Below are positions 46,623 through 63,831 of a DNA stretch of 64,000 nucleotides, piece by piece. Source of the DNA: Promethearchaeia archaeon (GTDB lineage Archaea; Asgardarchaeota; Lokiarchaeia; Sigyniarchaeales; SOKP01); contig JAHQWP010000218.1 of the NCBI GenBank assembly GCA_029856235.1, positions 70 to 64,069 of the forward strand, written 5' to 3'. The first letter of the stretch is position 1. Each line of letters begins with the position of its first letter. The notes under the pieces are model-generated. The model was not told the origin of the DNA, searched no databases, and worked only from the letters and a program-made list of their open reading frames with translations. A program made the position numbers and the translations under genes.

Positions 46623-46883
46623 TTAACCAATTGATTGTTTCCATCTTCTTAAGGCTCTCTTTTTTTTTATTAAATCTGATTCATCCTTAACTACAGGGGC
46701 TACGGTAATCTTTTCCTTCTGTTCTAGATTGACATCTTCTTTTAAGTAATATTTACCATCGTCATCATTCTTTGAAATAATCCCTGCCTTCACAAATTTA
46801 TTTTTTTGATAGGATGCAGCTCCAAGAGAAACCATTTTTAAGGTCTTTTGAATTTCCCTTACTTCCGCCCGATTATGTGTCAT
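46623..46883 (-). CDS. truncated paralogue of the wHTH protein (possible gene remnant), start overlaps stop of beta-helix gene
   Basis: MTHNRAEVREIQKTLKMVSLGAASYQKNKFVKAGIISKNDDDGKYYL matches residues ~60-105 of 45963..46526. It lacks the first helix and the TM tail. Confidence 0.35.
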   Translation of the reverse strand: MTHNRAEVREIQKTLKMVSLGAASYQKNKFVKAGIISKNDDDGKYYLKEDVNLEQKEKITVAPVVKDESDLIKKKRALRRWKQSIG

Positions 46884-48115
46884 AAGAAATCCAAATCCTC
46901 TTGAGGTTTTTTAAACATTTTACCATTTTTATATATCATAAAAACAGAAACTCCAACGATGCAGATACTTATAAAGAGAATAGTTGGCAGGTAATTTAAT
47001 GATGGCTTAAGTGTACAATCGTTATCTTGAATTACATTCCCTTGGCAATTTAATTCAACGATACATTCATCATTTCCTATTACATAATTTCCCGAAACGA
47101 TGTTATAATCGCTATCGGAAAGAATTATCCCCCACCGGTTGTAATTTGCGGTGTTTCCTGAAATAGTGTTATAATTGCTATAGAAAAGAACAATCCCACA
47201 TTCGGTATTATAAAATGCGGTGTTTCCCGAGATGATGTTATAATTACTATCTACTAAGCATATCCCACTCCAATTATTGTTATTTACTGTGTTTCTTAAG
47301 AAAGTGTTATTATAACTATATGCTATCCACATCCCATGCATGTTATTATCATTCATAATGTTTCCCGAAATGATGCTATTATTCCCAGCTAAATGTAAAC
47401 CATTCATATTATTATCATTCATAGTGTTTCCCGAAATGACAGTGTAATTACAGGCTAATATATATATCCCACACCATGTGTTGTTATTTGCAGTGTTTCC
47501 CGAGACTGTATTATTAAAACTATCAGATAAAAGTATCCCACCACGGTTGTTATTTACGATATTTCCAGATAATGTGTTGTTATAACAACTCCCACCACCC
47601 CAACCATCGCCAAATACTATCCCCAACTGACTATATGAACAATTATTACCAATCAATTGGGAGTTATTAACATTCAATAATCCGATTCCAGCTTCTGATC
47701 CCCATTCCGCATTATAGAGGGTACAATTTACGATTTTAAAATACACATTGGAATTTTCAATTAAAATAGAATTTCCCGAGCCTTCACCATCTATTTCTAA
47801 ATCTTCAATAATATAAGGATCAGAATAAGTACCATTCCCCGTACATATTCCACCTTCTTTAGCAACAGTCCAATTAATACTTGGATTGTCATCGTTAATA
47901 TGAATTTTTCCTGATACTGCTGGGATTTTTGGTTTTTCCTTGTCAGAATTAATAACATCGTTGTCATCAGTAATAAAACTTGGACTAATTGTAAACCCTA
48001 GTGCTAAAGCGAAAAGGATTCCAAAAGTGATTACTATTATTATTTCTATTTTTACTTTTGATTTCATTTTGGTTTCACCATTATAATATAAATTTGTTTT
48101 TGGATGTGATTTCAA
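46880..48115 (-). CDS. right-handed parallel beta-helix surface protein (short, 411 aa), C-terminal TM anchor
   Basis: The N-terminal region resembles the 802-aa paralogues (NPSINWTVAKEGGICTGNGTYSDPYIIEDLEIDG...VYFKIVNC). Repeats of (I/V)SGNT(A/M)N(N/D)N. TM at LPTILFISICIVGVSVFMI. Confidence 0.8.
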   Translation of the reverse strand: MKSHPKTNLYYNGETKMKSKVKIEIIIVITFGILFALALGFTISPSFITDDNDVINSDKEKPKIPAVSGKIHINDDNPSINWTVAKEGGICTGNGTYSDPYIIEDLEIDGEGSGNSILIENSNVYFKIVNCTLYNAEWGSEAGIGLLNVNNSQLIGNNCSYSQLGIVFGDGWGGGSCYNNTLSGNIVNNNRGGILLSDSFNNTVSGNTANNNTWCGIYILACNYTVISGNTMNDNNMNGLHLAGNNSIISGNIMNDNNMHGMWIAYSYNNTFLRNTVNNNNWSGICLVDSNYNIISGNTAFYNTECGIVLFYSNYNTISGNTANYNRWGIILSDSDYNIVSGNYVIGNDECIVELNCQGNVIQDNDCTLKPSLNYLPTILFISICIVGVSVFMIYKNGKMFKKPQEDLDFL

Positions 48116-49181: not shown

Positions 49182-50195
49182 GTGAATATTATGAATGAAA
49201 TTGATATTTGGAAATTATACAAAATGATGCTACGGAGTCGTCTTTTTGAAAACGCCGTAACGAAACTATGGAAAGAAGGGTTGATTACAGGTGAAATGCA
49301 CCTTGGTATTGGAGAGGAGGCAATCGTAGCGGGAGTAGTTTCGCAATTAGAAGACGGAGATGCCATGGCTGTTACTCATCGAGGAACCCCTCAATTCATC
49401 ATGCGAGGAGTAGATCCAGTTTCTTTACTACTCGAGTTTTTTGGTCATTCTGAAGGATTATGTAAAGGACAGGGAGGTCACATGCATCTTTTTTCAAAAG
49501 AACATTTAATCGCTGCTTCAGGAATAGTAGGCGCGTCAGGTCCAGCAGCTACAGGTTTTGCACTCGCATTAAGTTATAAGAAACTAAACAAAATCGCCGT
49601 AGCGTTCTTTGGAGAGGGAGCAGTTAATCAGGGAATGATGATGGAATCAATGAATCTAGCTTCAGTTTGGAACTTACCTGTTCTTTTTGTATGCTGCGAT
49701 AATGATTGGGCAGTCACAACGACTACTAACAATTGTACTGGGGGTACAATCTTAGATAGGGCTAAAGGTTTTGGGATTGAAGGATATAGTGTCAATGGAA
49801 CAGATGTAGAAGCTGTCTGGAATGTGACAAACCAGGCAATATCAAAATTGCGAAAAAACAGTGGACCTCAGTTTATTCACGCCACTTGTACACACATGGA
49901 AGCGCATTTACTTGGAGATTTGCTCCTTAGGAATAATCAAGATCCCGTCATGATGGCTGAAACTGCAGAACCTCTCAAACAATATGCGGGTGAAAGCTTA
50001 GACGAAGTTCTTTTATTGGTTCGAAAAATTGGAGCTCAAACTAAAAAAAAAGGTGATCCTATTGTTTTCACAAAAAAGAAATTAAAGGATGAGGAGGATC
50101 GCTTAAAACAGATTGAAGAAGATGTAGCTAAAGAGATTGAAGAACTTACTAGCAAGGCGTTAGAAATATATAAAGGAGGTATTAAATATGACTAA
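49182..50195 (+). CDS. 2-oxoacid (pyruvate/acetoin/branched-chain) dehydrogenase E1 alpha subunit, TPP-dependent
   Basis: LYKMMLRSRLFE, GEMHLGIGEEA, TPP motif GEGAVNQGMMMESMNLASVWNLPVLFVCCDN. Confidence 0.85.
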   Translation: MNIMNEIDIWKLYKMMLRSRLFENAVTKLWKEGLITGEMHLGIGEEAIVAGVVSQLEDGDAMAVTHRGTPQFIMRGVDPVSLLLEFFGHSEGLCKGQGGHMHLFSKEHLIAASGIVGASGPAATGFALALSYKKLNKIAVAFFGEGAVNQGMMMESMNLASVWNLPVLFVCCDNDWAVTTTTNNCTGGTILDRAKGFGIEGYSVNGTDVEAVWNVTNQAISKLRKNSGPQFIHATCTHMEAHLLGDLLLRNNQDPVMMAETAEPLKQYAGESLDEVLLLVRKIGAQTKKKGDPIVFTKKKLKDEEDRLKQIEEDVAKEIEELTSKALEIYKGGIKYD

Positions 50196-51201
50196 AATGA
50201 CTTTTGCCCAAGCTATTGAAAGTGCGCTTACACAGGCTATGGAGGAAGACGAAAATGTTATTATTCTGGGAGAAGATGTACACACTTTACGGATCAATCT
50301 TTTTGCTCGATTTGGTAAAGAAAGAGTGAAATACACTCCCATAAGCGAAAGTGGATTTGTTGGTGCTGCCGTCGGTGCTGCTATGGCAGGTTTACGACCT
50401 ATTGCAGAAGTCATGTTAGTAGATTTCATAGCAGTTACAATGGATGCAATCCTTAATCACGCTGCAAAAATTCCATTCTTCTCGGGAAATAAATGGAAAG
50501 TACCTCTTGTTATCAGAACCGCTTGTGGTGGAGGATATGGTGATGCTGGACAACACGAACAAAGTTTATGGGGTTGGTTAGCTCACATCCCAGGATTAAA
50601 AATTGTCGTTCCGTCAAATCCTGCAGACGCTGGAGGATTAATGCTGTCTTCTATCTATGAAGATAATCCAGTAATCTATTTTGAACACAAACTCCTAGCT
50701 GATTATTGGTTGGAAAATATGGCTATAGGTGGGAGAACTACGGTTTCTTTTGACGTTCCAGAACAAGGAGCAGAGGGAGAAGTTCCAGATAAATGGGAAC
50801 CAATTCCTTTAGGTAAACTAAATCATATGAAGGATGGAAGTGATATTACATTAGTTAGTGTTGGTGTTGGTGTTCATCGTTCCATAGAAGCTGCTAATAT
50901 TTTAGAAGAAAAAGGTATTTCCGCGGAAGTTTTAGATTTAAGGTGTATAGCACCACTAGATAGTGAAGGATTAAAGAAGTCTGTAGAAAAAACTGAAGCT
51001 CTCTTAGTTGTTGATGAAGATTATAAGAATTTTGGACTTTCAGGCGAAATATGTGCTTTGCTTTTGGAAAATGAAATTTCGTTTAAATTCGGTCGTGTAT
51101 GCACTGAAAATACGATACCTTATGCAATAAAGCTAGAAAACCAAGCGCTTCCCAATACTAAGAGAATCGTCGATAAGACGCTTGAAGTTTTAAATAAGTA
51201 G
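50188..51201 (+). CDS. 2-oxoacid dehydrogenase E1 beta subunit
   Basis: MTFAQAIESALTQAMEEDENVIILGEDV, SESGFVGAAVGAAMAGLRP, QHEQSLWGW. 8-nt overlap with the alpha subunit gene. Confidence 0.9.
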   Translation: MTKMTFAQAIESALTQAMEEDENVIILGEDVHTLRINLFARFGKERVKYTPISESGFVGAAVGAAMAGLRPIAEVMLVDFIAVTMDAILNHAAKIPFFSGNKWKVPLVIRTACGGGYGDAGQHEQSLWGWLAHIPGLKIVVPSNPADAGGLMLSSIYEDNPVIYFEHKLLADYWLENMAIGGRTTVSFDVPEQGAEGEVPDKWEPIPLGKLNHMKDGSDITLVSVGVGVHRSIEAANILEEKGISAEVLDLRCIAPLDSEGLKKSVEKTEALLVVDEDYKNFGLSGEICALLLENEISFKFGRVCTENTIPYAIKLENQALPNTKRIVDKTLEVLNK

Positions 51202-51836: not shown

Positions 51837-52334
51837 TTATTCCGGTATAATAATCGTAGTATCTTCCTTGATTCTATCAAGAACGATTTGAGTTTTTACC
51901 TCTTCCACTCCCGGAAGGTTTCGTAATTGGTCAATTAACCTCATAGAGTCTTCATGGTCTAAACATTTAGCCATGATAAAAAGAGGATATTCTCCGGTCA
52001 CTACGTAGCCGAATTTGATTTTTTCCATGTTCTCTATTTCGGTTTTTACTTGCTCAATTGGTTGTTGTGAGTTAACTCTCAATGACGCCATGACCATTTC
52101 TCGATATCCCAAATGACGACAATCTATTAAAGCTACGTACTTTTTAATTAAGGTGTCTTCTAATTTTTGGACACGGGCCCTGATCGCAGTTGCGCTTTTT
52201 GGTTTTTGTTTTAACTTTGTTGATACCATTTCAGCAATCTTGTTTATTGTGATTTTTCCATCATTTTGTAATAAGTCCAAGATTTCTCGATCAATTTCAT
52301 CTATTTCTAATGGTTTGTTATTATCTGTTGCCAT
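51837..52334 (-). CDS. Lrp/AsnC family transcriptional regulator
   Basis: IDEIDREILDLLQNDGKITINKIAEMV HTH plus a C-terminal RAM/ACT-like domain (GYVVTGEYPLFIMAKC...LPGVEEVKTQIVL). Confidence 0.85.
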   Translation of the reverse strand: MATDNNKPLEIDEIDREILDLLQNDGKITINKIAEMVSTKLKQKPKSATAIRARVQKLEDTLIKKYVALIDCRHLGYREMVMASLRVNSQQPIEQVKTEIENMEKIKFGYVVTGEYPLFIMAKCLDHEDSMRLIDQLRNLPGVEEVKTQIVLDRIKEDTTIIIPE

Positions 52335-52574: not shown

Positions 52575-52799
52575 ATGGCAGATTTAACACTTAATGCAGT
52601 AGGAAAAAAATGCCCAATGCCTGTCCTCATGACTAAAAAGGAGTTAAAGAAAATGAGCTCAGGACAAACTCTTGAATTGGTTGTCGACGACAAAGGAGCC
52701 TTAAAAGACGTACCTGCTCTTATCAAAAAGACTGGGGATACGATTGTCGAGACTAATGAAGATAACGGCCATATAACCTTTACAATTCAAAAAGCTTAA
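52575..52799 (+). CDS. tusA: TusA/SirA-like sulfur carrier protein
   Basis: CPMP motif (GKKCPMPVLMTKKELKKM). The ORF track starts at TTG 52566; ATG at 52575. Confidence 0.8.
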   Translation: MADLTLNAVGKKCPMPVLMTKKELKKMSSGQTLELVVDDKGALKDVPALIKKTGDTIVETNEDNGHITFTIQKA

Positions 52800-52829
52800 A
52801 CCTTAGACTTACGAGAAAAGTGATTAACA

Positions 52830-53198
52830 ATGACAACCTATTCTTTTTTTATTAGTACTGAACCTTACAAATTCGAAGCGAGCGACTCGTTAATAGAGAT
52901 TTGTAAATCTTTGATAAAGAAAGGGCATACTATTAAGGGATTTTTTTTCTTTGGAACTGGCGTTTACAACATAAAGGGAGACATTAGCAGTGGAAGCTCT
53001 ATAAGAGATATTCCCAAAAAGCTAGAAACATTTGCAACTGAGAATAATATTCCCACGGTTGGATGTTCAACCTGGGTAAGTCTAACGGGATTAAAAGAAT
53101 CGAGCTTTATTAAAGGAGCTACAGAAGAAGGGTTAGGCGACTTTTCTAACTGGGCTGTAGAATCAGACAAATTAATTGTATTTGGAGCGGGGGGTTAA
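52830..53198 (+). CDS. dsrE: DsrE/TusD-like sulfur relay protein
   Basis: 122 aa. FFISTEPY opening. Candidate active Cys in PTVGCSTWVSLTGL at the position of the TusD/DsrE catalytic Cys. Confidence 0.7.
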   Translation: MTTYSFFISTEPYKFEASDSLIEICKSLIKKGHTIKGFFFFGTGVYNIKGDISSGSSIRDIPKKLETFATENNIPTVGCSTWVSLTGLKESSFIKGATEEGLGDFSNWAVESDKLIVFGAGG

Positions 53199-53203
53199 GT
53201 AAA

Positions 53204-53572
53204 ATGGTAGAATCTGTAGTTATAATAGCTGATCACTCGCCAATAGGTAAGAATTCAGCGTTGGAAGCAGTTCGTATTGGCTCTGGATTTGTAGCTCTTG
53301 GAGAATATATTAATTGTCAAATCGTATTTACGGGAGACGCTGTTTATTTACTTAGCAAAAACGCGAAACCAGAGGCAGTTGGAATGGACACATTCGATGA
53401 AGTTATGGAAATCGCAGACTTATCAGATTTAGAACTTTACGTAGTGGATCAAGCTTTAAAAGATGCTGGGATGAGTGCTGATGACTTAGTTGAATACGAA
53501 AATTTGAAGATCGTCACAATTGAAGAAGTCGTTAATTTAATTGAAAACGCAGACACAAGTTTTAGATTTTAA
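53204..53572 (+). CDS. dsrF: DsrF/TusC-like sulfur relay protein
   Basis: 122 aa. VVIIADHSPIGKNSALEAVRIG..., ELYVVDQALKDAGM. Confidence 0.65.
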   Translation: MVESVVIIADHSPIGKNSALEAVRIGSGFVALGEYINCQIVFTGDAVYLLSKNAKPEAVGMDTFDEVMEIADLSDLELYVVDQALKDAGMSADDLVEYENLKIVTIEEVVNLIENADTSFRF

Positions 53573-53588
53573 GGGAGGAGAATAAAAA

Positions 53589-53930
53589 ATGTCTGAAACC
53601 AGGAAAGTATTGTATTTATTTGGATATAGTGAAATGACTGGAACACAATTAGAGCGATTATTACCGATCTTAAAAGCACAAATTAACAAAGGTTCGCAAC
53701 TTGGATTAGTTCTAATTCACGACGGAGTTATTGGGATCAACAAGAAAGGCAAGGTTCCGGAGAAGATGGAAGAATTACTCAATATGAATATCGTTGTTTA
53801 TGCGATGATCCCTGATTTACAAGCTCGTGGTATAGATCTGGAACAAATTCACGATAAGGTTAAAGCAATTGAATATGACGATTTAATCGATTTATTAGAT
53901 GTAACACCAAAAATAATATCTTGGATGTAA
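53589..53930 (+). CDS. dsrH: DsrH/TusB-like sulfur relay protein (no Cys)
   Basis: 113 aa. LVLIHDGV, VYAMIPDLQARGI. SD-like GGGAGGAG upstream. Confidence 0.65.
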   Translation: MSETRKVLYLFGYSEMTGTQLERLLPILKAQINKGSQLGLVLIHDGVIGINKKGKVPEKMEELLNMNIVVYAMIPDLQARGIDLEQIHDKVKAIEYDDLIDLLDVTPKIISWM

Positions 53931-54052
53931 ATACTCCAGGAGATCAAAATAGATTTTTTGAAAATTATGGTAATAAAATATTACAAAATTTTGGAATATA
54001 AATGAATTAAAAATTATAAAACAAAAAAAACAAAAAACAGAAGTGAAAAAAT

Positions 54053-54469
54053 ATGGGAGAAACAATAAACTATATAGTTAAGGACAAATCGTTCGAGAAA
54101 TTCGCAATGATGATGCTCCTAGGTACCACAGCAGACGCTATGGAAACCAAATCCAATTTTTTCTTCACCTTTTGGGGCTTGAACTTATTAACCAAAAAGT
54201 TTAAACCTAAAGTTGCTGGAATGCCTACCCCAATGAAGGGTATGGGTGCTAAGATTTTTGGCAAAAGGATGGCAAAATTTGGGATTGAAGATCCATGGGG
54301 TATGATTAAAGACGCTGTCGAAAATGGCAACATGAAATTATTTCCATGCCAAATGACAATGGATTTAATGGGAATTAAGCGAGAAGAAATGTATGACTTC
54401 GTTGAAGATCCTGTTGGTGCCGCAACATTCTTAGAAATGAGTGAAGGCGGACAAATAGTCTCACTATAA
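54053..54469 (+). CDS. DsrE-superfamily protein (COG2210 / DsrE3-like)
   Basis: FAMMMLLGTTADAMETKSNFFFTFWGLNLL and a Cys in LFPCQMTMDLMGI. Confidence 0.6.
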   Translation: MGETINYIVKDKSFEKFAMMMLLGTTADAMETKSNFFFTFWGLNLLTKKFKPKVAGMPTPMKGMGAKIFGKRMAKFGIEDPWGMIKDAVENGNMKLFPCQMTMDLMGIKREEMYDFVEDPVGAATFLEMSEGGQIVSL

Positions 54470-54483
54470 ATAAATTTTTAAAA

Positions 54484-54496
54484 TTTTTTTTTTTTT
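54484..54496 (+). terminator. oligo-T tract between dsrE-like gene and hdrC
   Basis: T13, 15 nt after the stop at 54469 and 25 nt before the hdrC ATG. Confidence 0.35.
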
Positions 54497-54520
54497 CAAG
54501 TTAATAAAAAGGTGGAAAAA

Positions 54521-55087
54521 ATGTCTGAAACAAAAGAAGAACACCGAGAATATAAGACGGATGAAGATTTCGATAAAAACTATTTCAAAGATATAGAAAG
54601 AAAATCGAACATCTGGCAATGTATACAGTGTGGTTCGTGTACCGCGAGTTGTGAAAGCGGCAGATGGACCGCGTTAAAGACCCGGTCGATTATTAGAAAA
54701 GTAGTTCTTGGCGATTTATCTGTTCTAGAGGATCCTGATATTTGGTTGTGTACGACATGTTATCAATGTTATGAACGTTGTCCTCGCGATGTAAGGCCAA
54801 CCGATGTAATAATGGAACTCAGAAATTACGCGACTAAATTGGGAAATATATCACCAGCTCATAGAGCTGTCGTTGGCTATTTAAAGAATTTTGGCCACGC
54901 AGTGCCGATAAACGACGAGATTAGAAAGCGAAGGGTCGAATTAGGATTAGAAGAACTCCCTCCAACTGCGTTTAAATATAAGCAAGAGGGAGATGATAAA
55001 GATTTAAAGAAATTTGAAGAACACTTATTTGATCTTCCTCCCGTTAAGGAGGAGAAAAAAAAGGAAGAGAAAAAGGGGGAGAAGTAA
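54521..55087 (+). CDS. hdrC: heterodisulfide reductase subunit C-like (2x[4Fe-4S])
   Basis: CIQCGSCTASCESGR and CTTCYQCYERCPRDV. The ORF track starts at GTG 54512; ATG 54521 follows AGGTGG. Confidence 0.85.
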   Translation: MSETKEEHREYKTDEDFDKNYFKDIERKSNIWQCIQCGSCTASCESGRWTALKTRSIIRKVVLGDLSVLEDPDIWLCTTCYQCYERCPRDVRPTDVIMELRNYATKLGNISPAHRAVVGYLKNFGHAVPINDEIRKRRVELGLEELPPTAFKYKQEGDDKDLKKFEEHLFDLPPVKEEKKKEEKKGEK

Positions 55088-55090
55088 TAA

Positions 55091-56008
55091 ATGGTAAAAG
55101 AACAAACATTTTCGTTTTTTCTTGGATGTCTCATGCCAAATCGATATCCTGCTATTGAAAAAGCAACTAAATTTGTAATGAAGAAATTAGGATATGAGAT
55201 ATTAGATATGGAACGCGCCAGTTGTTGTCCGGCTCCAGGAGTCTTTCGATCTTTTAACAAGGTTGATTGGATGGTAGCAGGTGCTAGAAATCTATGTATA
55301 GCTGAAAAACTTGATGCAGATATTCTTACAGTTTGTAACGGATGCTTTGGAACGCTCCAAGAGATTAATAAACACTTGAAAGAGAACGAAGAACACAGAG
55401 AGTTAGTGAATGAAAAGCTAAAACTGCTCGGAGATTACGAGTTTAAAGGTACGATTGATGTCCGACACGTTGCTGAGGTGTTAGGATACGAAATTGGGCC
55501 ATGGGGCATAGAAGATTTAATAACCAGAAAAGTAAACGCTCGTGCGGCTGTACATTATGGATGTCATTTTCTAAAACCTACAAGAATTCGGGAGATAGAG
55601 AGCTCAGAGGGACCTACCATAGTAGAAGAATTTATTGAGGTTTTAGGAGTGGAGTCTGTTCGATTCAAAGAACAACTCACATGTTGTGGAGCAGGCGGAG
55701 GCGTAAAAGCATATTCCGGAGATACGAGCATGACGATTTTTGGAGAAAAAATGAAAAATATTGACGAAGTCGAACCTGACTTTATTTTAGACATATGTCC
55801 GTTCTGTCACTTACAATTTGAGACGGGGCAGGATTATCTAAACAAAAATAAAAACTGTAATTACGATTATCCCGTAATTCACCTTTCCCAGCTTGTCGCG
55901 TATTGTATGGGGATGGACCAAGAATTTGTTGGTCTACAATATCAAATGATGGGAAAAGATTATATTTTTGGTGGAGAAGAAGTCAAAAAAGAAGAGGAGG
56001 CCATATAG
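55091..56008 (+). CDS. hdrB: heterodisulfide reductase subunit B-like (two CCG domains)
   Basis: GC...CCPAPG...CNGC and GC...CCGAGGG...CPFC. Confidence 0.9.
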   Translation: MVKEQTFSFFLGCLMPNRYPAIEKATKFVMKKLGYEILDMERASCCPAPGVFRSFNKVDWMVAGARNLCIAEKLDADILTVCNGCFGTLQEINKHLKENEEHRELVNEKLKLLGDYEFKGTIDVRHVAEVLGYEIGPWGIEDLITRKVNARAAVHYGCHFLKPTRIREIESSEGPTIVEEFIEVLGVESVRFKEQLTCCGAGGGVKAYSGDTSMTIFGEKMKNIDEVEPDFILDICPFCHLQFETGQDYLNKNKNCNYDYPVIHLSQLVAYCMGMDQEFVGLQYQMMGKDYIFGGEEVKKEEEAI

Positions 56009-58024
56009 ATGGCTGTTAAAGAAGAAAAAATGGAAGAAAGTAAAGTTGGATCGGAGGACTCTGAAGAACCCCGAATTGGCGTATTTGTATGTCATTGCGG
56101 TCATAACATTGCTGGAACTGTAGATGTCGCAAAAGTGGCAAATTACGCAAAAGATTTACCAAATGTTGTAAAAGCAGAGCATTATATGTTTATGTGTTCT
56201 AAACCGGGAGTTCAGATGGTTAAAGATTCAATTAAAGAATTAGGAGTTAATAGAACCGTTGTAGCGAGTTGTTCTAAAAATCAACACGGTAGGACTTTTG
56301 CGAGAGCAATTGCCGAAGAGGGTATTAATAAACACAGACACCAACAAGTCAATGTTCGAGAATATTGTAGTTGGGTTCATCAAAAAGACAAAGCAAAGGC
56401 TACTGAAAAAGCACTTCAATTGGTGGAAGCAGGAGTTAATCGCGCTCGAAAACTTGAAGATGTAGAAACAAGAAGAGTTCAAACTACTAAAGCAGCGTTA
56501 GTTATTGGTGCGGGTATCGCGGGTCTTAGAGCTTCAAATGATTTGGCGGAATTAGGAATACCAGTGTTTTTAGTAGAGAAGAATTCGACGATCGGGGGAC
56601 ATATGACGCAATTGAATAAAACATTTCCAACTTTAGAGTGCCCACAATGTTCAATTTCACCGTTAACTAACGGAGTAGCGAATCATCCTTTAATTGAGCT
56701 TTATACAAACGCTCAGATTAAAAACATTGAGGGATCGTTAGGGAATTTTGAAGTTGAAATCGAAATTAAACCTCGGTATGTTAAGGATAACTGTACTTCG
56801 TGTGGTGAATGTTCATTACACTGTCCAGTAGAAGTCCCAAGCGAATGGGATAAAGGGATGTCTATGCGGAACGCTATTTATAAAGCATATCCACAAGCAA
56901 TTCCAGCAACATTCGTAAGGGACAAGAAGACTTGTATTGAGTGTAATACTTGCATTAATGTATGTCCAGTACAAGCAGTTGATTTCTCGATGCAACCTGA
57001 AACTAAGACGGTTAAAGTTGGCTCGATTGTTGTTGCTGTGGGGTATGATGAATACGATCCTACGGAAGTTGAACCGTATCATTATGGACAAGACGGCTAC
57101 GAAGATGTTATTACTCAATTAAAATTGGAAAGAATGTTATCACCTACCTCTCTTACCAATTCTGAAGTTTTACGACCTTCTGACGGAAAATTACCTAAGA
57201 GTATTGTAATGATTCAATGCGTTGGGAGTAGAAACGAGCAAGTTGGAAATAAGTATTGTACTGGTGTATGTTGTAAATTCGCGATAAAAAATGCTCGAAT
57301 TGTAAAAGAAATGTATCCGGATACCGATGTGACGGTTTGTTATATTGACGTGCGAACTCCGGGATTAAACTTTGAAGAAATGTATCAATCCGCACAAGAA
57401 GTTGGAGTTCGATTTATCCGAGGAAGACCTTCGGAAATCGTTAAGGATCCAATAACTGGAGAACTAAAAGTTATTGTAGAAGACACGTTAAGCATGACGC
57501 CTTTACAATTAAACGCTGATATGGTTGTATTGTCAGCAGCGATGGTTCCTCCTAAAGGAATAGGTCCTCTTGGTTCTAAACTTAAAGTTTTACGTTCCAA
57601 GGAAGGATTCTTAAAAGAATTTCATATTAAGATGAACCCTACATTAAGCAGTAAAGGAGGAATTTTCTTAGCGGGCACGATTCAAGGGCCAAAAGACATT
57701 TCTGAAACCGTAGCACACGCAGGAAGCGCTGCTGCTCTAGCTGCAGCACCATTAGTCAAAGGTTATATTGAAAAGGAAATGTTGGTGCCATCAATAGATT
57801 ACGATTTATGCGTGAATTGTGGAATTTGTAAAACAATTTGCGCACCTGCGGCAATTGATATTGACGAAAATGGGAGACCGACGGTTAACGAGATTGCGTG
57901 TAGATCGTGTGGTATGTGTATGCCAAGTTGTCCTACGAATGCAATTCAATTAATAAATTTTACAGACGATCAATTATACGATGAAATAATCGCTGTATCA
58001 GGCGGGGGTGCTGTTTGCGAATGA
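56009..58024 (+). CDS. hdrA: heterodisulfide reductase subunit A-like flavoprotein
   Basis: VCHCGHNI, FAD fold ALVIGAGIAGLRASNDLAELG, several CxxCxxCxxxCP ferredoxin motifs. Confidence 0.9.
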   Translation: MAVKEEKMEESKVGSEDSEEPRIGVFVCHCGHNIAGTVDVAKVANYAKDLPNVVKAEHYMFMCSKPGVQMVKDSIKELGVNRTVVASCSKNQHGRTFARAIAEEGINKHRHQQVNVREYCSWVHQKDKAKATEKALQLVEAGVNRARKLEDVETRRVQTTKAALVIGAGIAGLRASNDLAELGIPVFLVEKNSTIGGHMTQLNKTFPTLECPQCSISPLTNGVANHPLIELYTNAQIKNIEGSLGNFEVEIEIKPRYVKDNCTSCGECSLHCPVEVPSEWDKGMSMRNAIYKAYPQAIPATFVRDKKTCIECNTCINVCPVQAVDFSMQPETKTVKVGSIVVAVGYDEYDPTEVEPYHYGQDGYEDVITQLKLERMLSPTSLTNSEVLRPSDGKLPKSIVMIQCVGSRNEQVGNKYCTGVCCKFAIKNARIVKEMYPDTDVTVCYIDVRTPGLNFEEMYQSAQEVGVRFIRGRPSEIVKDPITGELKVIVEDTLSMTPLQLNADMVVLSAAMVPPKGIGPLGSKLKVLRSKEGFLKEFHIKMNPTLSSKGGIFLAGTIQGPKDISETVAHAGSAAALAAAPLVKGYIEKEMLVPSIDYDLCVNCGICKTICAPAAIDIDENGRPTVNEIACRSCGMCMPSCPTNAIQLINFTDDQLYDEIIAVSGGGAVCE

Positions 58025-58473
58025 GCAATTGTGAAGTACCTGATGAATACGTGCAGGAAAGGATTAACAACATTGTTGTATTCATGTGCAACGAGTGCGG
58101 TCAAGGATCAGCAAACACTGCGGGTGTCGCTAGAATGGCGTACGACGCTGCGATAAGAATAATTAGAGTGCAATGCACAGGTCAAGTCGGACCAATTCAG
58201 ATCATGGAAGCATTAACTAACGGTGCAGATGCTGTTGCGTGCGTAGGTTGTTGTTTAGGTGCGTGTCATTTTTTTAATGGTAATATAATTTCAATGCATA
58301 GAATAAAATTGATGAAAAAGGTCTTTAAAGAGTTGGGGTATAGCGATCAATTCGTAAACCAATACACATCGAGAGCTGCGGAAGGTGAAACTGCTGTTGG
58401 TGATTTTGAAGATATTATCGATCGATTAACAACTGCAATAACAGAAAAGGGGACGATAAAAGATGGATGTTAA
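58021..58473 (+). CDS. mvhD: MvhD/FlxD-like [2Fe-2S] electron-transfer protein
   Basis: FMCNECGQGSANTAG, RVQCTGQV, GADAVACVGCCLGACHF. ATGA overlap with the hdrA stop (the track lists TTG 58015). Confidence 0.85.
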   Translation: MSNCEVPDEYVQERINNIVVFMCNECGQGSANTAGVARMAYDAAIRIIRVQCTGQVGPIQIMEALTNGADAVACVGCCLGACHFFNGNIISMHRIKLMKKVFKELGYSDQFVNQYTSRAAEGETAVGDFEDIIDRLTTAITEKGTIKDGC

Positions 58474-59704
58474 AGTGTTTCAATTTAACGGATGTAAAAA
58501 GTGCTTCAATGAATCTTTACTATTAAAAGAAGAGTCCAAATACAAAGTTGAATTTGTTTCCGATCCAAAGAACTGGAAAGGAGAAAAAGTTGATGTTTCA
58601 GTTATTACGGGTTATTTACTCCCTAACGACTTAGAGCATCTGGGACGCATAAAAAACAATTCTACTAAAATTATTGCTTATGGAGGCTGTACTGCCACTG
58701 GTGGAGTATTTGCTTTAGCAAATCAAAAAGGGCACGAGGTCACTCCTTTAACGAATTTAGTTGAAATTAATAGTAACGTTCATGGATGTTTAGGCGAAAT
58801 TGAAGAATTAAAATTAGCTATTGACGGAACAGAAGTTCCGAAATTAAAAAGTTTATGCCAAGTTTGTTCCAGAAAGGCAACTTGTGACTATTTAGAATCA
58901 ATCAATAGACAAATTGAATTAGAAGATTCTGAAACTTGTTTTAACGACTTAGGATTTCTATGTAGTGGTTTTACAGCTACTGAATGTAAAGAAAAATGTA
59001 TTGATTACAATACTCCTTGTAGAGGTTGTAAACCAAGCATAGATCGTTCTGGAATTCGCATGTTAGCAATGTTCGGAACCTTAGCTGGGAACATAGAGAT
59101 TGCAACGGAGCATTCAGTTAAGGGAGCAACTGACAAATTAGGAGACGAGGACGATGACCTAACCGATAGTTTACCTGATGTGGTTGGAAATTTTTTCAGA
59201 TTCACATTACCTACTTCAGGTTTTCCAAAAGGTAGAATCCCTTCTTCGGGATCTTTGCTGGAAGATGTTTTTATTGGTAGACTGATCGAAGAGATTCCTT
59301 TGATAACAGGTCTTTTAGGTGGTGCTAAATCAGTATCATTAACGCTTAAGTTTATAGAATCCTACGAGAAAGCGAACCAAATAGAAGTAAGCGAACAGAC
59401 TAAAAAGTATAGAAACGAACTACTACAATTAGAAAGTGACTTGTCAAAAGCTATTGAGAGCGAAGACGCATCAAAATATAAAGAAATTACGGATAAGATT
59501 CGATTTATTGCTGGTAACATGAACTTATCAAATGTATTTTTTGGGGGGTTCAAGTCAATTATCGATCCTAACGATGATTTTAACAATTATAAATCCCATG
59601 TTTTTGATGTGGTGGAAGGAACCTACAAAAATGGTTCGATAGAATATACCCTTGATCAAACGGGTATTATAACAGAAATTAAAATTAGTGAGGAATTATT
59701 ATGA
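58463..59704 (+). CDS. hydrogenase small-subunit-like (MvhG/FrhG-type) Fe-S protein with ~200-aa C-terminal extension
   Basis: NGCKKCFNE, DVSVITG, AYGGCTATGGVFAL, GFLCSGFTATECKEKCIDYNTPCRGCKP. No large-subunit gene nearby. Confidence 0.6.
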   Translation: MDVKVFQFNGCKKCFNESLLLKEESKYKVEFVSDPKNWKGEKVDVSVITGYLLPNDLEHLGRIKNNSTKIIAYGGCTATGGVFALANQKGHEVTPLTNLVEINSNVHGCLGEIEELKLAIDGTEVPKLKSLCQVCSRKATCDYLESINRQIELEDSETCFNDLGFLCSGFTATECKEKCIDYNTPCRGCKPSIDRSGIRMLAMFGTLAGNIEIATEHSVKGATDKLGDEDDDLTDSLPDVVGNFFRFTLPTSGFPKGRIPSSGSLLEDVFIGRLIEEIPLITGLLGGAKSVSLTLKFIESYEKANQIEVSEQTKKYRNELLQLESDLSKAIESEDASKYKEITDKIRFIAGNMNLSNVFFGGFKSIIDPNDDFNNYKSHVFDVVEGTYKNGSIEYTLDQTGIITEIKISEELL

Positions 59705-62166
59705 GTTTTGAGTTGTTAAAAAAAGAAATAATTGACGTTGGTTTGTGTCAAGGCTGCGGTTTGTGTGTAGGATATTGCAAGCATGTAGAAATGGAGACGT
59801 TACGTCCGATATTAAAAGATTATTGTATTCTAGAAAGGGATGGACAAAAATGCGGAAAATGCTACGAAAACTGTCCTCAAGTAATACAGAAAAAATTCAA
59901 AGAGATACACCCAAAAGGAATTTATTCTCTAAGAAGCAAAGATTCTGAGATATTAGAAAAAGCATCAAGTGGTGGATTTGTAACTACAATTGCAAAGCAT
60001 CTTTTGAAAGAAAAAGATCTGTCCAAAATCGTTATGGTACAAAACATCGATGATTTACCAAAAGCAAGTATAGTAACTAACCCTGATGATGTTGTTCAAA
60101 AAGCTGGGGTTGTGTATGGACGATCGGGAGTTTTGCAAACATTAGTTGAGGAAACAGGAGAAGATTTCGAACCTTTAGGAATTATTGGAGTTCCGTGTGA
60201 AATAAGAGGTGCTGCTGAACTTGAGGTGGAAATGAAAAGAGATATCCTCAAAATGGGATTATTTTGCAATTCAAGCATTCGAACTGAAGATACTGATAGA
60301 GGTTTAATTTATTCACCGTGTTCTAGTGGATGCCCTTCAGGAGTTGATGCTCGAGGGTATATTTCCTTAATTCGAGAAGGACATTATTTAGAAGCTGTGG
60401 AATTAGTACGTGAAAACAATCCTTTACCCTCTGTTTGCGGAAGAATTTGTACGAACGAATGTGAACATGGATGTACGTTAATAGGATCCGATAACCCCAT
60501 CGCTATTCGAGAATTAAAGAAATTTGTTACCGAATATGAAATTAAACATGGTAGAGCTGTAAGAGCTCAAAATATCAAAAAGCTGGGAAAAAAAGTGGCT
60601 ATCATTGGTTCTGGACCAGCAGGTTTAACAGCAGGATATTTTCTATCCCTTAAAGGATATTCTCCTACGATTTTCGAAAAAGCGGATCAAACTGGTGGAA
60701 TGTTAAGATTTGGAGTACCGCAATTCAGACTACCTAATTATATACTCGATTACGATGTAGAGACTATTAAAAATACTGGCGTGGAAATAATTTTTAACAC
60801 ACCGTTAGGTCCAGATATGACTATTGAAGATTTAAAAAAAAATGGATTTGAAGCAATTTTTATAGCAACAGGTCAATATAAACCTCGTACATTGCATCTA
60901 GAAGGCGAGGACTTACCAAACGTGTTTGTTGCTATTAATTTTCTTATCGATAGGAAATATCGTGAATGGACAAACCTAGAGGAATTTAAGGGAAAAACCG
61001 TCGGTATTATAGGAGGAGGTCCTGTAGCCGTTGATGTAGCTCAAACAGCTTTAAGATTGGGCGCTGAAAAAATACACCTTGTAGATATTATGTCTGAAAA
61101 AGATCTTGAACTCACATTGAGGGAGATTCCCGAGGAAGAATATAAATATATGGAATATCATTTTGGAACTTCAACTGCCAAAATAACAAAAGGAAAAGAA
61201 GACGGATTGATATTAAATAGTTACAAAATTGAATGGGGAGAACCTAACGAGACTGGTAGACGCCCGCTAAACAAAGTTAAAAACTCTGATTACGAAATTC
61301 CAATCGATATAATTGTAATAGCTGTTGGACAAACCGTCGATTTCAATTTAATTGATGTAGCTACAAATAACAAACTTAAAAAAGAACGGAACAAGATCGA
61401 TATTGACCCTATAACATTTGAAACTAACATTCCAGGTGTTTTTGCAGGCGGGGATATTGTTTCGAACTCAAAAGCCGTTGCCATCGCTGCAATTGCTCAC
61501 GGAAAAGAAGCTGCCATCTCTATCGATCGATATCTAAAAGGCGAAGATCTTAAAACCGGTCGTAATAAAGAAGATAGAATGTTTTTCGCTGGACAAAAGA
61601 AACCACCAAAAGACTTTTCTTTAAAACCAGAATCTTTAGAAATGGCTACAGAGAACATTCAATGGGACTTTGATGAAATCGAGGGTATTTTTAACGAAGA
61701 AACGGCGTTAAGGGAAGCAAAACGGTGCTTAAGCTGTAATCACTTCTGTTTGCATTGCCAAGATTTTCCTGCAATCTATTCGGATTTTACAGCCGGAGAA
61801 GTTGGCTCTGAAAAAGGATATTCTACAGTTGTGGCATGGACAGATAGAGGAAAAGATATTATTGAAAAAGCTATTAAAAAAGGTTTGTTTGAACAAGGAA
61901 GCGTTAACGAAGAAGAATTACAGAAAGCAATCAATCTAAAGTCAAAAAGAGAGTTAAAAGTCCTAGATAAAACACCTAGACAAGAAGTCTTAAATTATAT
62001 CACAAGAACAGGACACGCCACTATCAGTAAAATTGCTGAAATTTTAGATTTAGAAGCAAAAAAAGTGAGATACGAAGCCTTAAGGTTAGTTCAATTAAAC
62101 CAGCTTGAGATGATAGTTGAGCCTGGTATGGATGAGCCAATTTTTTCACTTTTATGTGAAGATTAA
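59701..62166 (+). CDS. fusion protein: FrhB/FdhB-like module interrupted by a GltD-like NAD(P)H flavoprotein module, plus C-terminal winged helix
   Basis: CQGCGLCVGYC, ASSGGFVTTIAKHLL, GIIGVPCEIRGA, LFCNSS. Then PLPSVCGRICTNECEHGCT and VAIIGSGPAGLTAGYFL...GGMLRFGVPQFRLP. Then CLHCQDF...DFTAGEVGSEKGYSTVVAWTDRGKDII. C-terminal ISKIAEILDLEAKKVRYEALRL. Confidence 0.75.
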   Translation: MSFELLKKEIIDVGLCQGCGLCVGYCKHVEMETLRPILKDYCILERDGQKCGKCYENCPQVIQKKFKEIHPKGIYSLRSKDSEILEKASSGGFVTTIAKHLLKEKDLSKIVMVQNIDDLPKASIVTNPDDVVQKAGVVYGRSGVLQTLVEETGEDFEPLGIIGVPCEIRGAAELEVEMKRDILKMGLFCNSSIRTEDTDRGLIYSPCSSGCPSGVDARGYISLIREGHYLEAVELVRENNPLPSVCGRICTNECEHGCTLIGSDNPIAIRELKKFVTEYEIKHGRAVRAQNIKKLGKKVAIIGSGPAGLTAGYFLSLKGYSPTIFEKADQTGGMLRFGVPQFRLPNYILDYDVETIKNTGVEIIFNTPLGPDMTIEDLKKNGFEAIFIATGQYKPRTLHLEGEDLPNVFVAINFLIDRKYREWTNLEEFKGKTVGIIGGGPVAVDVAQTALRLGAEKIHLVDIMSEKDLELTLREIPEEEYKYMEYHFGTSTAKITKGKEDGLILNSYKIEWGEPNETGRRPLNKVKNSDYEIPIDIIVIAVGQTVDFNLIDVATNNKLKKERNKIDIDPITFETNIPGVFAGGDIVSNSKAVAIAAIAHGKEAAISIDRYLKGEDLKTGRNKEDRMFFAGQKKPPKDFSLKPESLEMATENIQWDFDEIEGIFNEETALREAKRCLSCNHFCLHCQDFPAIYSDFTAGEVGSEKGYSTVVAWTDRGKDIIEKAIKKGLFEQGSVNEEELQKAINLKSKRELKVLDKTPRQEVLNYITRTGHATISKIAEILDLEAKKVRYEALRLVQLNQLEMIVEPGMDEPIFSLLCED

Positions 62167-62206
62167 CGAATTAAAAACAATATTAAAAAATAAAGAGGTA
62201 TGAATT

Positions 62207-62443
62207 ATGAAATTTGACCAAGAATTAAATGTGTGCGGTTTAGTCTGTCCCGTACCTGCGTTAAAAACTAAGAAACAACTCATGAAGATGAGACCGGGTA
62301 CCGTGTTAAAAGTAATCACAGACTATAAGCCAGCATCTGAATCAGTTCCACGTGATTTAGCAAAAACTAAGCACAAGCACTTAGGAACGGATTTTCTCGA
62401 CGATGACGAGCTCTGGCACATATATTTTGAAGCTGTAAAATAA
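62207..62443 (+). CDS. tusA: second TusA/SirA-like sulfur carrier protein
   Basis: CGLVCPVPALKTKKQLMKM (CPxP motif). GAGG 8 nt upstream. Confidence 0.75.
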   Translation: MKFDQELNVCGLVCPVPALKTKKQLMKMRPGTVLKVITDYKPASESVPRDLAKTKHKHLGTDFLDDDELWHIYFEAVK

Positions 62444-62622: not shown

Positions 62623-63831
62623 TTAATCTGAATTTAAATCATAATACTCAGAAATATTTTTGCCCTTACCGAGAATCGCATCTACCTTTTCAAGTTCTTC
62701 AGGTATGTTTATTTCTTGAGGACATTTCTCTAAACATTCACCACATTTAGTACAGAAGGATGCATTGCCATTTGGATATTCTTTATTTAACTTTTTCTTC
62801 GATTTAGCTAATTTCTTATATCTTCGATTTATAAGGAAGGTCATCCCTCCTTTCTCTCCCGTGTAAGCTACGTTATTCAGAACAGCAAAATTTTCTGGAA
62901 TATTGACTCCAGAAGGACATGGCATGCAATATTTACACGCTGTGCACTGAACAAGAATGCTTTTGCGATAGATTTCTGCTAGTTCTGAAATTATATTATT
63001 ATCTTCTTCACTCAATGAATTAATCCCAGAATTTGAAGCACTTTCAACATTTTCATTGACCATCTTTTTTGATCCCATTCCACTGAGAACCACAGCTACT
63101 TCGGGTTGATTCCAAACGTATTGCAAAGCCCAATCAACGGGTGTTCGCTGGTTTGATGCTTTTTTCATTATTTTTAAGGCTTCTTCGGGAGGATTCGCTA
63201 ATTTTCCACCCTTGACAGGTTCCATTATCACAACTGCAATTCCTTTTTCATGAGCATACTTCAACCCCTCATGAGTTGCTTGAACTGCTGTATCCATGTA
63301 GTTATATTGGATTTGTGCGAGATCCCAATCGTAAAAATCAATTATTTCTTTAAAAACAGGAAGAGTATCGTGAAAAGAAAATCCAACATGCTTGATAAGT
63401 CCCTTATTTTTAGCTTCTTCCATCTTTTCGATTAAATTTAATTCCTTTACTTTCTTAAATGAGTTTCTCGATAGACCGTGGAAAAAATAAGCATCCAGAT
63501 AATCTGTTTGAAGGCTTTTTAATTGCTGGTTGAGATATTTGTAAAAATCTTCTGATTTTCGGACAAGGAACATTGGTAATTTGGTGACAAGGAAAACTTT
63601 TTCTCTATATCCGTCTTTTAATGCTTCTCCTAAGACTTTTTCGCTTGCTCCAAGACCATAAATCCAACCCGTGTCGATGTAATTGATGTCTTTATCAATT
63701 GCATAACGAATTAACTCTATCGATTCGTCCCAATCTACTCTAGGGAGGATTTTTTTTGTAGGAAGTCGCATGGCACCCAATCCAAGCGCAGATACTTTCC
63801 AGTCTATAGATCCAAATTTTCGATATTCCAT
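62623..63831 (-). CDS. aldo/keto reductase with C-terminal 4Fe-4S ferredoxin-like domain
   Basis: LGLGAMRLP, IDTGWIYG, HGL, plus CTACKYCMPCPSGVNIP and CTKCGECLEKCPQEINIP. Confidence 0.85.
   Translation of the reverse strand: MEYRKFGSIDWKVSALGLGAMRLPTKKILPRVDWDESIELIRYAIDKDINYIDTGWIYGLGASEKVLGEALKDGYREKVFLVTKLPMFLVRKSEDFYKYLNQQLKSLQTDYLDAYFFHGLSRNSFKKVKELNLIEKMEEAKNKGLIKHVGFSFHDTLPVFKEIIDFYDWDLAQIQYNYMDTAVQATHEGLKYAHEKGIAVVIMEPVKGGKLANPPEEALKIMKKASNQRTPVDWALQYVWNQPEVAVVLSGMGSKKMVNENVESASNSGINSLSEEDNNIISELAEIYRKSILVQCTACKYCMPCPSGVNIPENFAVLNNVAYTGEKGGMTFLINRRYKKLAKSKKKLNKEYPNGNASFCTKCGECLEKCPQEINIPEELEKVDAILGKGKNISEYYDLNSD

Follow-up and report, generated by a model that had tools for sequence, protein, structure and literature searches.

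A putative hydrogen-independent heterodisulfide reductase complex of hydrogenase descent, co-located with sulfur-carrier genes in Asgard archaea

What does a heterodisulfide reductase (Hdr) reduce in an archaeon that is not a methanogen? HdrABC-MvhD is widespread in non-methanogens (Asgard archaea, Korarchaeia, Bathyarchaeia) and its substrate in them is an acknowledged question (PMC10667645). Here, we address it for a gene cluster of a Promethearchaeia archaeon (Lokiarchaeia; contig JAHQWP010000218.1 of assembly GCA_029856235.1), in which hdrCBA, mvhD, an mvhG-like gene (mvhG') and an frhB-like gene stand between genes for TusA- and DsrE-family sulfur carriers; the whole stretch analysed (64,000 nucleotides, G+C content ~33%) is referred to as the window. 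We lean, with limited confidence, towards reading the cluster as the genes of an Hdr complex that derives from a hydrogenase and would work without H2, by flavin-based bifurcation or confurcation, with sulfur delivered by the carriers to its HdrB side. Every gene named in a preliminary description of this DNA was recovered in its place, and the Pfam and NCBIfam scans returned the expected family for each (Table 1); the regulator seen there as divergent upstream was found as well, and the run of same-strand genes, given as eleven, comprises twelve (52575-62443). A scan of one genome per species yielded 61 loci of the cluster, each with a Promethearchaeota or related Asgard label and one of them from the cultured Promethearchaeum syntrophicum MK-D1; their genes were mapped with tblastn.

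The kind of Hdr was assigned from sequence identities and from E-values against Protein Data Bank (PDB) entries. HdrA is colinear with the methanogen HdrA 5odc_A over residues 19-660 (Table 1), whereas the sHdrA of sulfur oxidisers (6tjr) is matched over residues 335-582 only (E 1.6e-37); HdrB matches 5odc_B (E 7e-90), the identity to the solved methanogen enzyme amounts to 46% for HdrA and 46.6% for HdrB, and the cofactor motifs of HdrA, HdrB and HdrC are all retained. Glu356 and Lys409, important for the bifurcating flavin of HdrA (PMC12054007), are both conserved in the window protein (alignment to 5odc_A), for which HdrA2 is the best NCBIfam model. Judged by sequence, the Hdr is of the methanogen type rather than sHdr, and presumably bifurcating. 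The genes from hdrC through frhB overlap or abut, which would befit subunits of one complex (hdrC starts at ATG 54521 in an open reading frame, ORF, that opens at GTG 54512, and is given 188 amino acids, aa, by gene callers). FlxA, FlxB and FlxC were absent among the cluster genes (Pfam), which distinguishes the locus from FlxABCD-HdrABC, and the Flox-Hdr clusters of MK-D1 lie at other sites.

TusA/DsrE-family carriers with invariant cysteines beside hdr recall the sHdr loci of Hyphomicrobium, Aquifex and Sulfolobales (PMC11094781), and could be taken to indicate an oxidative system that turns sulfane sulfur into sulfite, as in Hyphomicrobium or Sulfolobales. The likeness to sHdr loci, drawn from the outset, holds for the carriers and breaks down at the Hdr proteins, HdrA (671 aa) and HdrB being full-length and methanogen-like. 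The window has a single hdrCBA set followed by mvhD, and neither an hdrC1B1A-hyp-hdrC2B2 arrangement nor the hypothetical subunit that belongs to it; a Pfam scan of the cluster genes and of 42 larger window ORFs, from which two with 120 aa or more were missing, found neither a lipoate-binding protein (LbpA) nor a lipoate ligase. Moreover, MvhD, MvhG' and FrhB are not sHdr components, and the classical DsrEFH trio is a further difference. The oxidative reading is already contradicted by these tested features, and we regard it as barely conceivable.

As to the electron-input side, the absence of a hydrogenase large subunit was borne out, neither the L1 (RxCGxCxxxH) nor the L5 (DPCxxCxxH) motif of [NiFe] enzymes being found in any frame of the window. 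Residues 1-255 of MvhG' match MvhG 5odc_E in sequence (E 7e-14), and in both Lokiarchaeia and Thorarchaeia the twelve cysteines for its three [4Fe-4S] clusters show little or no variation. An AlphaFold model from a 46-sequence alignment of both classes (predicted local distance difference test, pLDDT, 88.6; predicted template-modelling score, pTM, 0.89) had the MvhG of 5ODC as its best Foldseek match (E 3.6e-15, template-modelling score 0.67); an alignment restricted to 12 closely related Lokiarchaeia proteins had given no usable model (pLDDT 46). Residues 256-413 are without counterpart in MvhG, and Foldseek on the whole model returned small-subunit matches only; this C-terminal segment was examined with a profile of its own against all PDB sequences. 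Each of the top 12 matches was a [NiFe] large subunit, with group 3 predominating (FrhA, E 2.1e-5; sulfhydrogenase alpha, E 7e-3; MvhA, E 0.036), and in all 12 a single register was recovered, aligning positions 11-75 of the extension with large-subunit residues ~40-107. Single extension sequences of distant lineages matched VhuA (2.2e-4) and frhA (1.7e-3) at the same profile positions. The aligned region covers the L1 motif, which reads IASRVCGICPIAHTL in FrhA and IAATIGGSKSISVTL in the extension consensus, where both nickel-ligand cysteines and the histidine are replaced.

We conclude from these alignments that the 413-aa protein is in all likelihood MvhG fused to a newly recognised, vestigial MvhA fragment of ~160 residues lacking nickel ligands, and that the complex would be derived from an Mvh hydrogenase and unable to bind a [NiFe] centre. 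The remnant sits at the very position in which, given the usual order mvhD-mvhG-mvhA, the beginning of mvhA would be expected. Pfam scans with single extension sequences found no family, and weak, non-significant terminal beta-strand matches of the extension to either end of the large subunit were discarded. For a Lokiarchaeia homologue on a 473-kb contig (P0089), precomputed annotation lists PF28234 together with PF01058; PF28234 was not reported in the Pfam scan of the window protein and may describe the C-terminal extension. The family is narrow: a search of 1.84 billion proteins gave 17 representatives at E<=1e-30, and the matches past that threshold were ordinary small subunits only, covering residues ~92-255. 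Its named relatives carry the labels Lokiarchaeota, Promethearchaeota or related Asgard names, and some of the distant members (33-44% identity) are labelled Thorarchaeota.

Reuse of a [NiFe] scaffold for a non-H2 reaction is known from NuoB/NuoD of complex I and from the Mbx/MBS sulfane reductase of Thermococcales, where MBS ties a hydrogenase relic to sulfur reduction. These are membrane-bound group 4 systems with a full-length large subunit, whereas the complex considered here would be a soluble group 3c derivative that keeps a fragment of it only. Compared with MvhADG-HdrABC (5ODC), the locus has HdrA, HdrB, HdrC, MvhD and the MvhG domain present and colinear (HdrA and HdrB being ~46% identical), with the Fe-S and flavin adenine dinucleotide (FAD) motifs, both bifurcation-site residues and the mvhD-mvhG order kept; it differs in having no functional MvhA, only the ~160-residue remnant fused to MvhG, in the FrhB(::GltD) that follows, in the attached sulfur carriers and in belonging to an organism that is not a methanogen.

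The flavoprotein encoded after mvhG' had been described as an FrhB/GltD fusion, and both parts do reside in one protein, not joined end to end, however, but with the GltD module inserted in FrhB. The 821-aa protein begins with a 2x[4Fe-4S] domain and ends in a winged-helix-like tail; Pfam places FrhB_N at residues 75-147 (PF04422, 1.6e-13), FrhB_C at 665-736 (PF04432, 3.9e-16) and, between them, Fer4_20 and Pyr_redox_2 at residues 205-601. The GltD/NfnB-type NAD(P)H-FAD-2x[4Fe-4S] insert spans residues ~195-660 (nucleotides ~60283-61680), has its GxGxxG and GxGxxA motifs at residues 303 and 438, respectively, and strongly matches 9n5u_A (deposited as NfnA; 1.7e-92) and the large subunit of NfnI (5jca_L; 5.6e-67). 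A short FrhB (345-389 aa), devoid of residues ~195-660, is encoded in three Lokiarchaeia loci and in all Thorarchaeia-type loci, and that of one of them (L047) aligns with window residues 1-194 and ~660-820 only; the insertion is thus seen in Lokiarchaeia loci only, and not in all of these. It follows that the constant partner is the FrhB-type flavoprotein, the NAD(P)H module being a later insertion. The tail (~70 residues, window 61900-62166; PRQEVLNYITRTGHATISKIAEILDLEAKKVRYEALRLVQL...), which resembles a winged helix, is conserved, and the short FrhB of L047 has it too.

The proposal that MvhD, the MvhG-like protein and FrhB::GltD resemble a non-hydrogen electron input for HdrA was upheld. 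An FrhB/FdhB-family flavoprotein as entry in place of hydrogenase is shared with FdhAB-MvhD-HdrABC (7BKB), with HdrA2B2C2 of Methanosarcina and with the type II cluster of anaerobic methanotrophic archaea (ANME), the last having a catalytically dead molybdopterin protein with FdhB beside HdrA (PMC12054007) and, like the present locus, a dead relic subunit adjoining an F420-type module. Unlike in these formate- or F420-dependent systems, the relic here combines a small subunit with part of a large one, MvhD and HdrA are separate proteins, FrhB carries the NAD(P)H insert, and TusA/DsrE genes belong to the locus. The insert resembles NfnAB/NfnSL, Stn and DsrL in its Fer4_20 and FAD/NAD(P)H Rossmann domains (with matches to 9n5u_A, Stn and NfnI), although it has no NfnA/NfnS partner and is embedded in FrhB and attached to Hdr. 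DsrL shows that GltD/NfnB-type modules can connect NAD(P)H with sulfur metabolism (PMC7596348).

Such an input side would also fit a complex that performs no thiol chemistry, a ferredoxin:F420 or ferredoxin:NAD(P) oxidoreductase (or transhydrogenase) running through HdrA, MvhD, MvhG' and FrhB::GltD, with HdrBC and the carriers as accessories. The GltD module is of the kind that bears the bifurcating FAD in Nfn, and two flavin sites together with HdrA could join three pools (pyridine nucleotide, deazaflavin and ferredoxin). In Korarchaeia the same core of FrhB with HdrA and MvhD is encoded by co-located frhB, hdrA and mvhD, which have been read in this way, and Hdr function without methyl-coenzyme M reductase (Mcr) is called puzzling there (PMC10667645). 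However, both CCG motifs of HdrB are complete, and HdrB and HdrC are among the best-conserved proteins of the cluster (82-98% identity), which points to a working disulfide-reducing site; we deem a thiol-free function decidedly unlikely.

On alignment, the candidate active cysteines of the carriers proved invariant among orthologues: the CPxP cysteine of TusA1 in 37/37, Cys79 of DsrE in 38/38, Cys99 of the DsrE2B-like protein in 44/44 and Cys14 of TusA2 in 54/54. Cys38 of DsrF is invariant as well (38/38). The TusA motifs of the window are GKKCPMP and GLVCPVP, and DsrE Cys79 is taken by us, from its position only, to be the equivalent of E. coli TusD Cys78. The fifth gene, previously called DsrE3-like, has as its nearest solved relative the Saccharolobus protein 2qs7 (E 1.8e-18, cysteine aligned), classed as DsrE2B and derived from an sHdr-type locus (PMC11094781). 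Against NCBIfam equivalog cut-offs of 78-94 bits the Tus/Dsr proteins score 39-51, and the TusB domain model alone passes (51 vs 49.2); on these scores, the carriers are members of their families and not demonstrable orthologues of the tRNA-thiolation Tus system. A DsrC-like redox disulfide at the CxxxC of TusA2 was considered, but as a mechanism of general validity it was rejected: MK-D1, two further Lokiarchaeia loci and Thorarchaeia have Gln, Thr or Arg in place of the first cysteine.

TusA1 and TusA2 score as high or higher against YedF models of selenium metabolism than against TusA models, and HdrA and FrhD/MvhD are widespread selenoproteins of Asgard archaea (PMC11227280), so that the carriers might be thought to move selenium (for selenoprotein or selenophosphate metabolism) instead of sulfur. 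Yet all YedF scores fall below the cut-off, and the window HdrA and MvhD ORFs are uninterrupted, without in-frame UGA. DsrEFH is not known to act in selenium metabolism, which likewise speaks against selenium carriage, and we hold this to be very improbable.

The linkage of carriers to hdr was retained across Lokiarchaeia and, with the same parts in shuffled order, in Thorarchaeia. Every long-enough locus displays the order Lrp(-), TusA1, DsrE, DsrF, DsrH, DsrE2B, HdrC, HdrB, HdrA, MvhD, MvhG', FrhB::GltD, TusA2; besides the three loci with a short FrhB, the sole rearranged one is that of MK-D1, with Lrp between dsrE2B and hdrC. Lrp lies upstream in 29/30 Lokiarchaeia loci with sufficient flank, and is adjacent to the cluster also in Thorarchaeia (L065) and in L066. 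The flanks are variable (the top downstream family occurs in 15/41 loci, the top family beyond Lrp in 10/30), and because the flanking genes change around a conserved gene order, we regard the cluster as a retained block; its recurrence in 61 species-representative loci rules out chance juxtaposition. TusA2 is the most conserved carrier (86-99% identity across Lokiarchaeia loci, 72% in MK-D1). Three metagenome contigs of the European Nucleotide Archive carry the cluster in identical form.

Three distant loci were found to be rearranged: L065 (Thorarchaeia) reads Lrp(-) and then DsrE-HdrC-HdrB-HdrA-MvhD-MvhG'-FrhB-TusA-DsrE-DsrF-DsrH, L066 reads TusA(-) and then DsrE-HdrC fragment-HdrB-HdrA-MvhD-MvhG'-FrhB, and L067 reads DsrE-DsrE-HdrC-HdrB-HdrA-MvhD-MvhG'-FrhB-TusA, a complete DsrEFH being present in L065 only among the three. 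Despite the rearrangement, a DsrE-family gene stands immediately 5' of hdrC in all four lineages, and a TusA gene follows frhB in Lokiarchaeia, in Thorarchaeia L065 and in L067. We argue that this co-location, having survived rearrangement across Asgard classes, is the strongest case for a functional link between carriers and Hdr. The Thorarchaeia DsrE preceding hdrC, used as query, gave 11 close matches and was uninformative on lineages outside the Asgard archaea.

Additional hdr and dsr genes accompany some loci. The three Lokiarchaeia loci L006, L024 and L047, with a short FrhB (380 aa), have an extra divergent HdrC-like/HdrB-like pair directly 3' of tusA2 (28-37% identity to the window HdrC and HdrB; at 11239-14174 in L047). 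In MK-D1 (L057; NZ_CP042905.2, 651579-672829) the carriers are flanked by a pair of divergently oriented Hdr clusters, DSAG12_01135-01138 (-) and DSAG12_01145-01150 (+), and at least four more Hdr-containing clusters are located elsewhere in this genome according to the supplementary table of Imachi et al. 2020. In L032 (17329-18400) and L033 (14383-15500), the minus strand a few kb downstream of the cluster encodes one more set of DsrE, DsrF and DsrH, of divergent sequence (34-50% identity), and L033 has an additional TusA.

Whether the carriers and hdr form one unit was approached by comparing the spacers across loci for runs of at least 6 T. Very short spacers and overlaps, as first described, characterise the inside of the sub-blocks; they do not extend to the DsrH-DsrE2B junction (122 bp) or the DsrE2B-HdrC junction (42-51 bp, with a T13 tract). 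A T run was present in the dsrE2B-hdrC spacer of 27/28 loci (median longest run 10) and in the dsrH-dsrE2B spacer of 26/38, and none was found at the other nine junctions, inside sub-blocks. Oligo-T tracts serve as archaeal termination signals. Because such tracts are conserved in two spacers, three transcription units are likely (tusA1-dsrEFH; dsrE2B; hdrCBA-mvhD-mvhG'-frhB::gltD-tusA2), and the T13 tract is a probable oligo-T terminator and/or promoter region. The joining of carriers to hdr in a single cluster, suggested at first, is confirmed as co-location, while the conserved tracts suggest separate transcription. In MK-D1 all thirteen genes are expressed, at values of 182-348 (units not stated; supplement to Imachi et al. 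2020), the top value, 348, being that of the DsrE2B-like gene; MvhA (346) and lysine 2,3-aminomutase (285) serve as comparison, and the cluster falls within the range of the listed catabolic genes. A scan for sigma-70 promoters and hairpin terminators performed at chance (39 vs 37.9 expected) and is not meaningful for an archaeon.

The separation of units favours the main rival reading, in which a conventional Hdr, fed by NAD(P)H or F420H2, acts on a small-molecule heterodisulfide (that of coenzymes M and B, CoM-S-S-CoB, or an unknown Asgard thiol pair), and TusA/DsrE would serve biosynthetic sulfur traffic (for instance that of this thiol cofactor, of Fe-S clusters or of thiolated tRNA) and be co-located for regulation only. 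The 46% identity to the solved methanogen enzyme with its motifs complete, and the scores of HdrB and HdrC (Table 1), agree with it, as does the KEGG column of the MK-D1 supplementary table, an automatic annotation, in calling the carriers tRNA 2-thiouridine-synthesising proteins; other Hdr complexes of MK-D1 are without neighbouring carriers, which suggests a common diffusible substrate. Conversely, mcr was undetected in Lokiarchaeum according to a review, and Hdr function without Mcr is termed unclear (PMC10667645); TusA2 sits within the hdr unit in Lokiarchaeia, Thorarchaeia and L067, a DsrE-family gene keeps its place directly 5' of hdrC in four lineages, and the Tus-model scores, save for TusB, are far under the equivalog cut-offs. 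We consider this rival rather unlikely.

We reason here within the carrier-fed reading, in which we infer, as a matter of interpretation, the assembly of a single complex, the route and direction of its electrons, its donors and, above all, its sulfur substrate. The locus would encode a soluble, Asgard-specific HdrABC-MvhD-MvhG'-FrhB(::GltD) complex descended from methanogen-type MvhADG-HdrABC, in which the [NiFe] catalytic subunit has shrunk to a remnant without metal ligands, so that H2 would be neither used nor made. An FrhB-type (F420H2-type) flavoprotein would replace the catalytic subunit; in most Lokiarchaeia it contains the inserted NfnB/GltD-type NAD(P)H-FAD module. Electrons would enter at FrhB::GltD, cross the three MvhG' clusters and then MvhD with its [2Fe-2S] cluster, and reach the bifurcating FAD in HdrA, to be split between ferredoxin and the HdrC-HdrB branch; reverse operation, as confurcation, may also occur. 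As HdrB-side substrate we propose an oxidised form of sulfur (a persulfide, a polysulfide or a disulfide) that the co-conserved carriers would hand over, namely TusA2, from inside the hdr unit, and the DsrE-family protein encoded directly 5' of hdrC, with TusA1-DsrEFH as a putative feeder relay. The Lrp/AsnC regulator may link expression to amino-acid catabolism.

Several observations weigh against this proposal. No DsrC/TusE-type acceptor was found among the cluster genes (Pfam, NCBIfam), and MK-D1 and Thorarchaeia lack the CxxxC pair of TusA2, which does away with a simple intramolecular disulfide as mechanism. With scores over the curated cut-offs of the CoB-CoM Hdr equivalogs (Table 1), HdrB and HdrC make a small-molecule heterodisulfide a possible substrate; apart from TusA2, the carriers are probably transcribed separately from hdr, and the regulator gene of MK-D1 sits at the carrier-hdr boundary. 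As to F420, a candidate partner only, FrhB::GltD scores 60-98 bits against FrhB/FpoF models with cut-offs of 269-475. By our own estimate from textbook potentials, bifurcation of NAD(P)H electrons to ferredoxin and a persulfide/sulfide couple (~-260 mV) would be endergonic at standard conditions, and these unfavourable energetics call for a more positive couple or for confurcation during amino-acid fermentation. The wider idea, that Lokiarchaeia and Thorarchaeia bifurcate or confurcate on protein-bound sulfane sulfur, is one that we find possible though doubtful; in it, the Hdr complex would couple NAD(P)H/F420H2 and ferredoxin to the reduction or formation of a persulfide borne by TusA/DsrE, which would replace CoM-S-S-CoB as high-potential partner.

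If that idea is true, it would mean cytoplasmic sulfur-dependent energy coupling in the closest archaeal relatives of eukaryotes, and would explain the role of Hdr in archaea without Mcr. The locus offers a testable candidate for the Hdr substrate, as the carriers stay with one Hdr complex across Asgard classes, and its presence and expression in cultured MK-D1 open the hypothesis to biochemical testing. It would further represent a soluble [NiFe]-hydrogenase turned into an H2-independent dehydrogenase, with the vestigial large-subunit fragment as a trace of the change; an 'MvhG' annotation beside hdr is hence not evidence of hydrogenase activity, which bears on hydrogen-centred models of Asgard archaea and eukaryogenesis.

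The combination had been thought undescribed, and this is accurate in part. The Hdr-MvhD-'MvhG'-FrhB-like block of MK-D1 is listed, with no function proposed, in Supplementary Table 4 of Imachi et al. 2020, where DSAG12_01149 is annotated plainly as MvhG, the carriers (DSAG12_01139-01143, DSAG12_01151) bear automatic Tus/DsrE annotations unconnected to the Hdr block, and the true hydrogenase is found elsewhere (DSAG12_03951-03954). Genes DSAG12_01145-01150 are orthologues of the window Hdr block. The whole TusA/DsrE-Hdr-MvhD-MvhG'-FrhB unit was not found described in a full-text literature search, the coverage of which was incomplete, so that an earlier mention is possible.

Table 1. Features of the cluster and its regulator (window coordinates)
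Feature	Position	Strand	Basis or remark
Lrp/AsnC-family regulator	51837-52334	-	Pfam HTH_AsnC-type and AsnC_trans_reg; divergent from cluster
TusA1 sulfur carrier, CPxP cysteine	52575-52799	+	Pfam TusA 2.6e-23
DsrE/TusD-like subunit, Cys79	52830-53198	+	Pfam DsrE; TIGR03012 1.2e-12, under curated cut-off
DsrF/TusC-like subunit, Cys38	53204-53572	+	Pfam DsrE 1.1e-12; TIGR03010 5.4e-10
DsrH/TusB-like subunit, no cysteine	53589-53930	+	Pfam DsrH 1.6e-11; TIGR03011 51 bits vs cut-off 49.2
122-bp dsrH-dsrE2B spacer	53931-54052	+	T6 at 53954-53959
Soluble DsrE2B-like carrier, Cys99	54053-54469	+	PF13686 (DrsE_2) 6.5e-22
T13 tract, dsrE2B-hdrC spacer	54484-54496	+	read straight from sequence
HdrC, two [4Fe-4S] clusters	54521-55087	+	Pfam 4Fe-4S dicluster; TIGR03290 174.5 bits vs cut-off 160
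HdrB, two CCG domains (noncubane-cluster motifs)	55091-56008	+	Pfam CCG 2.5e-36; TIGR03288 365 vs 345 bits
HdrA, full-length bifurcating type, 671 aa	56009-58024	+	Pfam HdrA-type FAD/Fe-S; 5odc_A E 8e-197
MvhD, [2Fe-2S] connector	58021-58473	+	Pfam FlpD 1e-30; NCBIfam VhuD 2.5e-26; start overlaps hdrA stop
MvhG', 413 aa, whole gene	58463-59704	+	Pfam Oxidored_q6 8e-12
MvhG' residues 1-255, [NiFe] small-subunit domain	58463-59227	+	three [4Fe-4S] ligand sets; 5odc_E match
MvhG' residues 256-413, probable degenerate [NiFe] large-subunit remnant	59228-59704	+	segment profile vs PDB
FrhB-like flavoprotein with inserted GltD/NfnB module, 821 aa	59701-62166	+	Pfam FrhB_N, Fer4_20 and Pyr_redox_2, FrhB_C
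TusA2	62207-62443	+	Pfam TusA 6.8e-19

No RNA families were detected in the window with Rfam. Just upstream of the cluster, genes for E1 alpha and beta of a 2-oxoacid (pyruvate/acetoin-type) dehydrogenase are encoded at 49182-51201 (+); this enzyme family works with lipoyl proteins, which deserves mention beside an Hdr/sulfur-carrier locus, and the pairing with the cluster appears only in the near-identical contigs L001 and L002. A convergent gene downstream (62623-63831, -) encodes an aldo/keto reductase whose C-terminal end bears a fused 4Fe-4S dicluster domain, and likewise adjoins the cluster only in near-identical contigs. Further away, a single ORF of 3542 aa occupies 10848-21476 (-), and tandem 802-aa NosD/right-handed beta-helix proteins are encoded at 25334-27742 and 27887-30295 (-), with a third, of 411 aa, at 46880-48115 (-) and a similar 821-aa protein in L001 just past the window end. 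The window also encodes a TIR-domain protein (33782-35035, +), two paralogous MalT-like TPR proteins (40048-41739 and 41915-43603) and a Ras/Roc-family small GTPase (43710-44264, +), a typical Asgard eukaryotic-signature protein.

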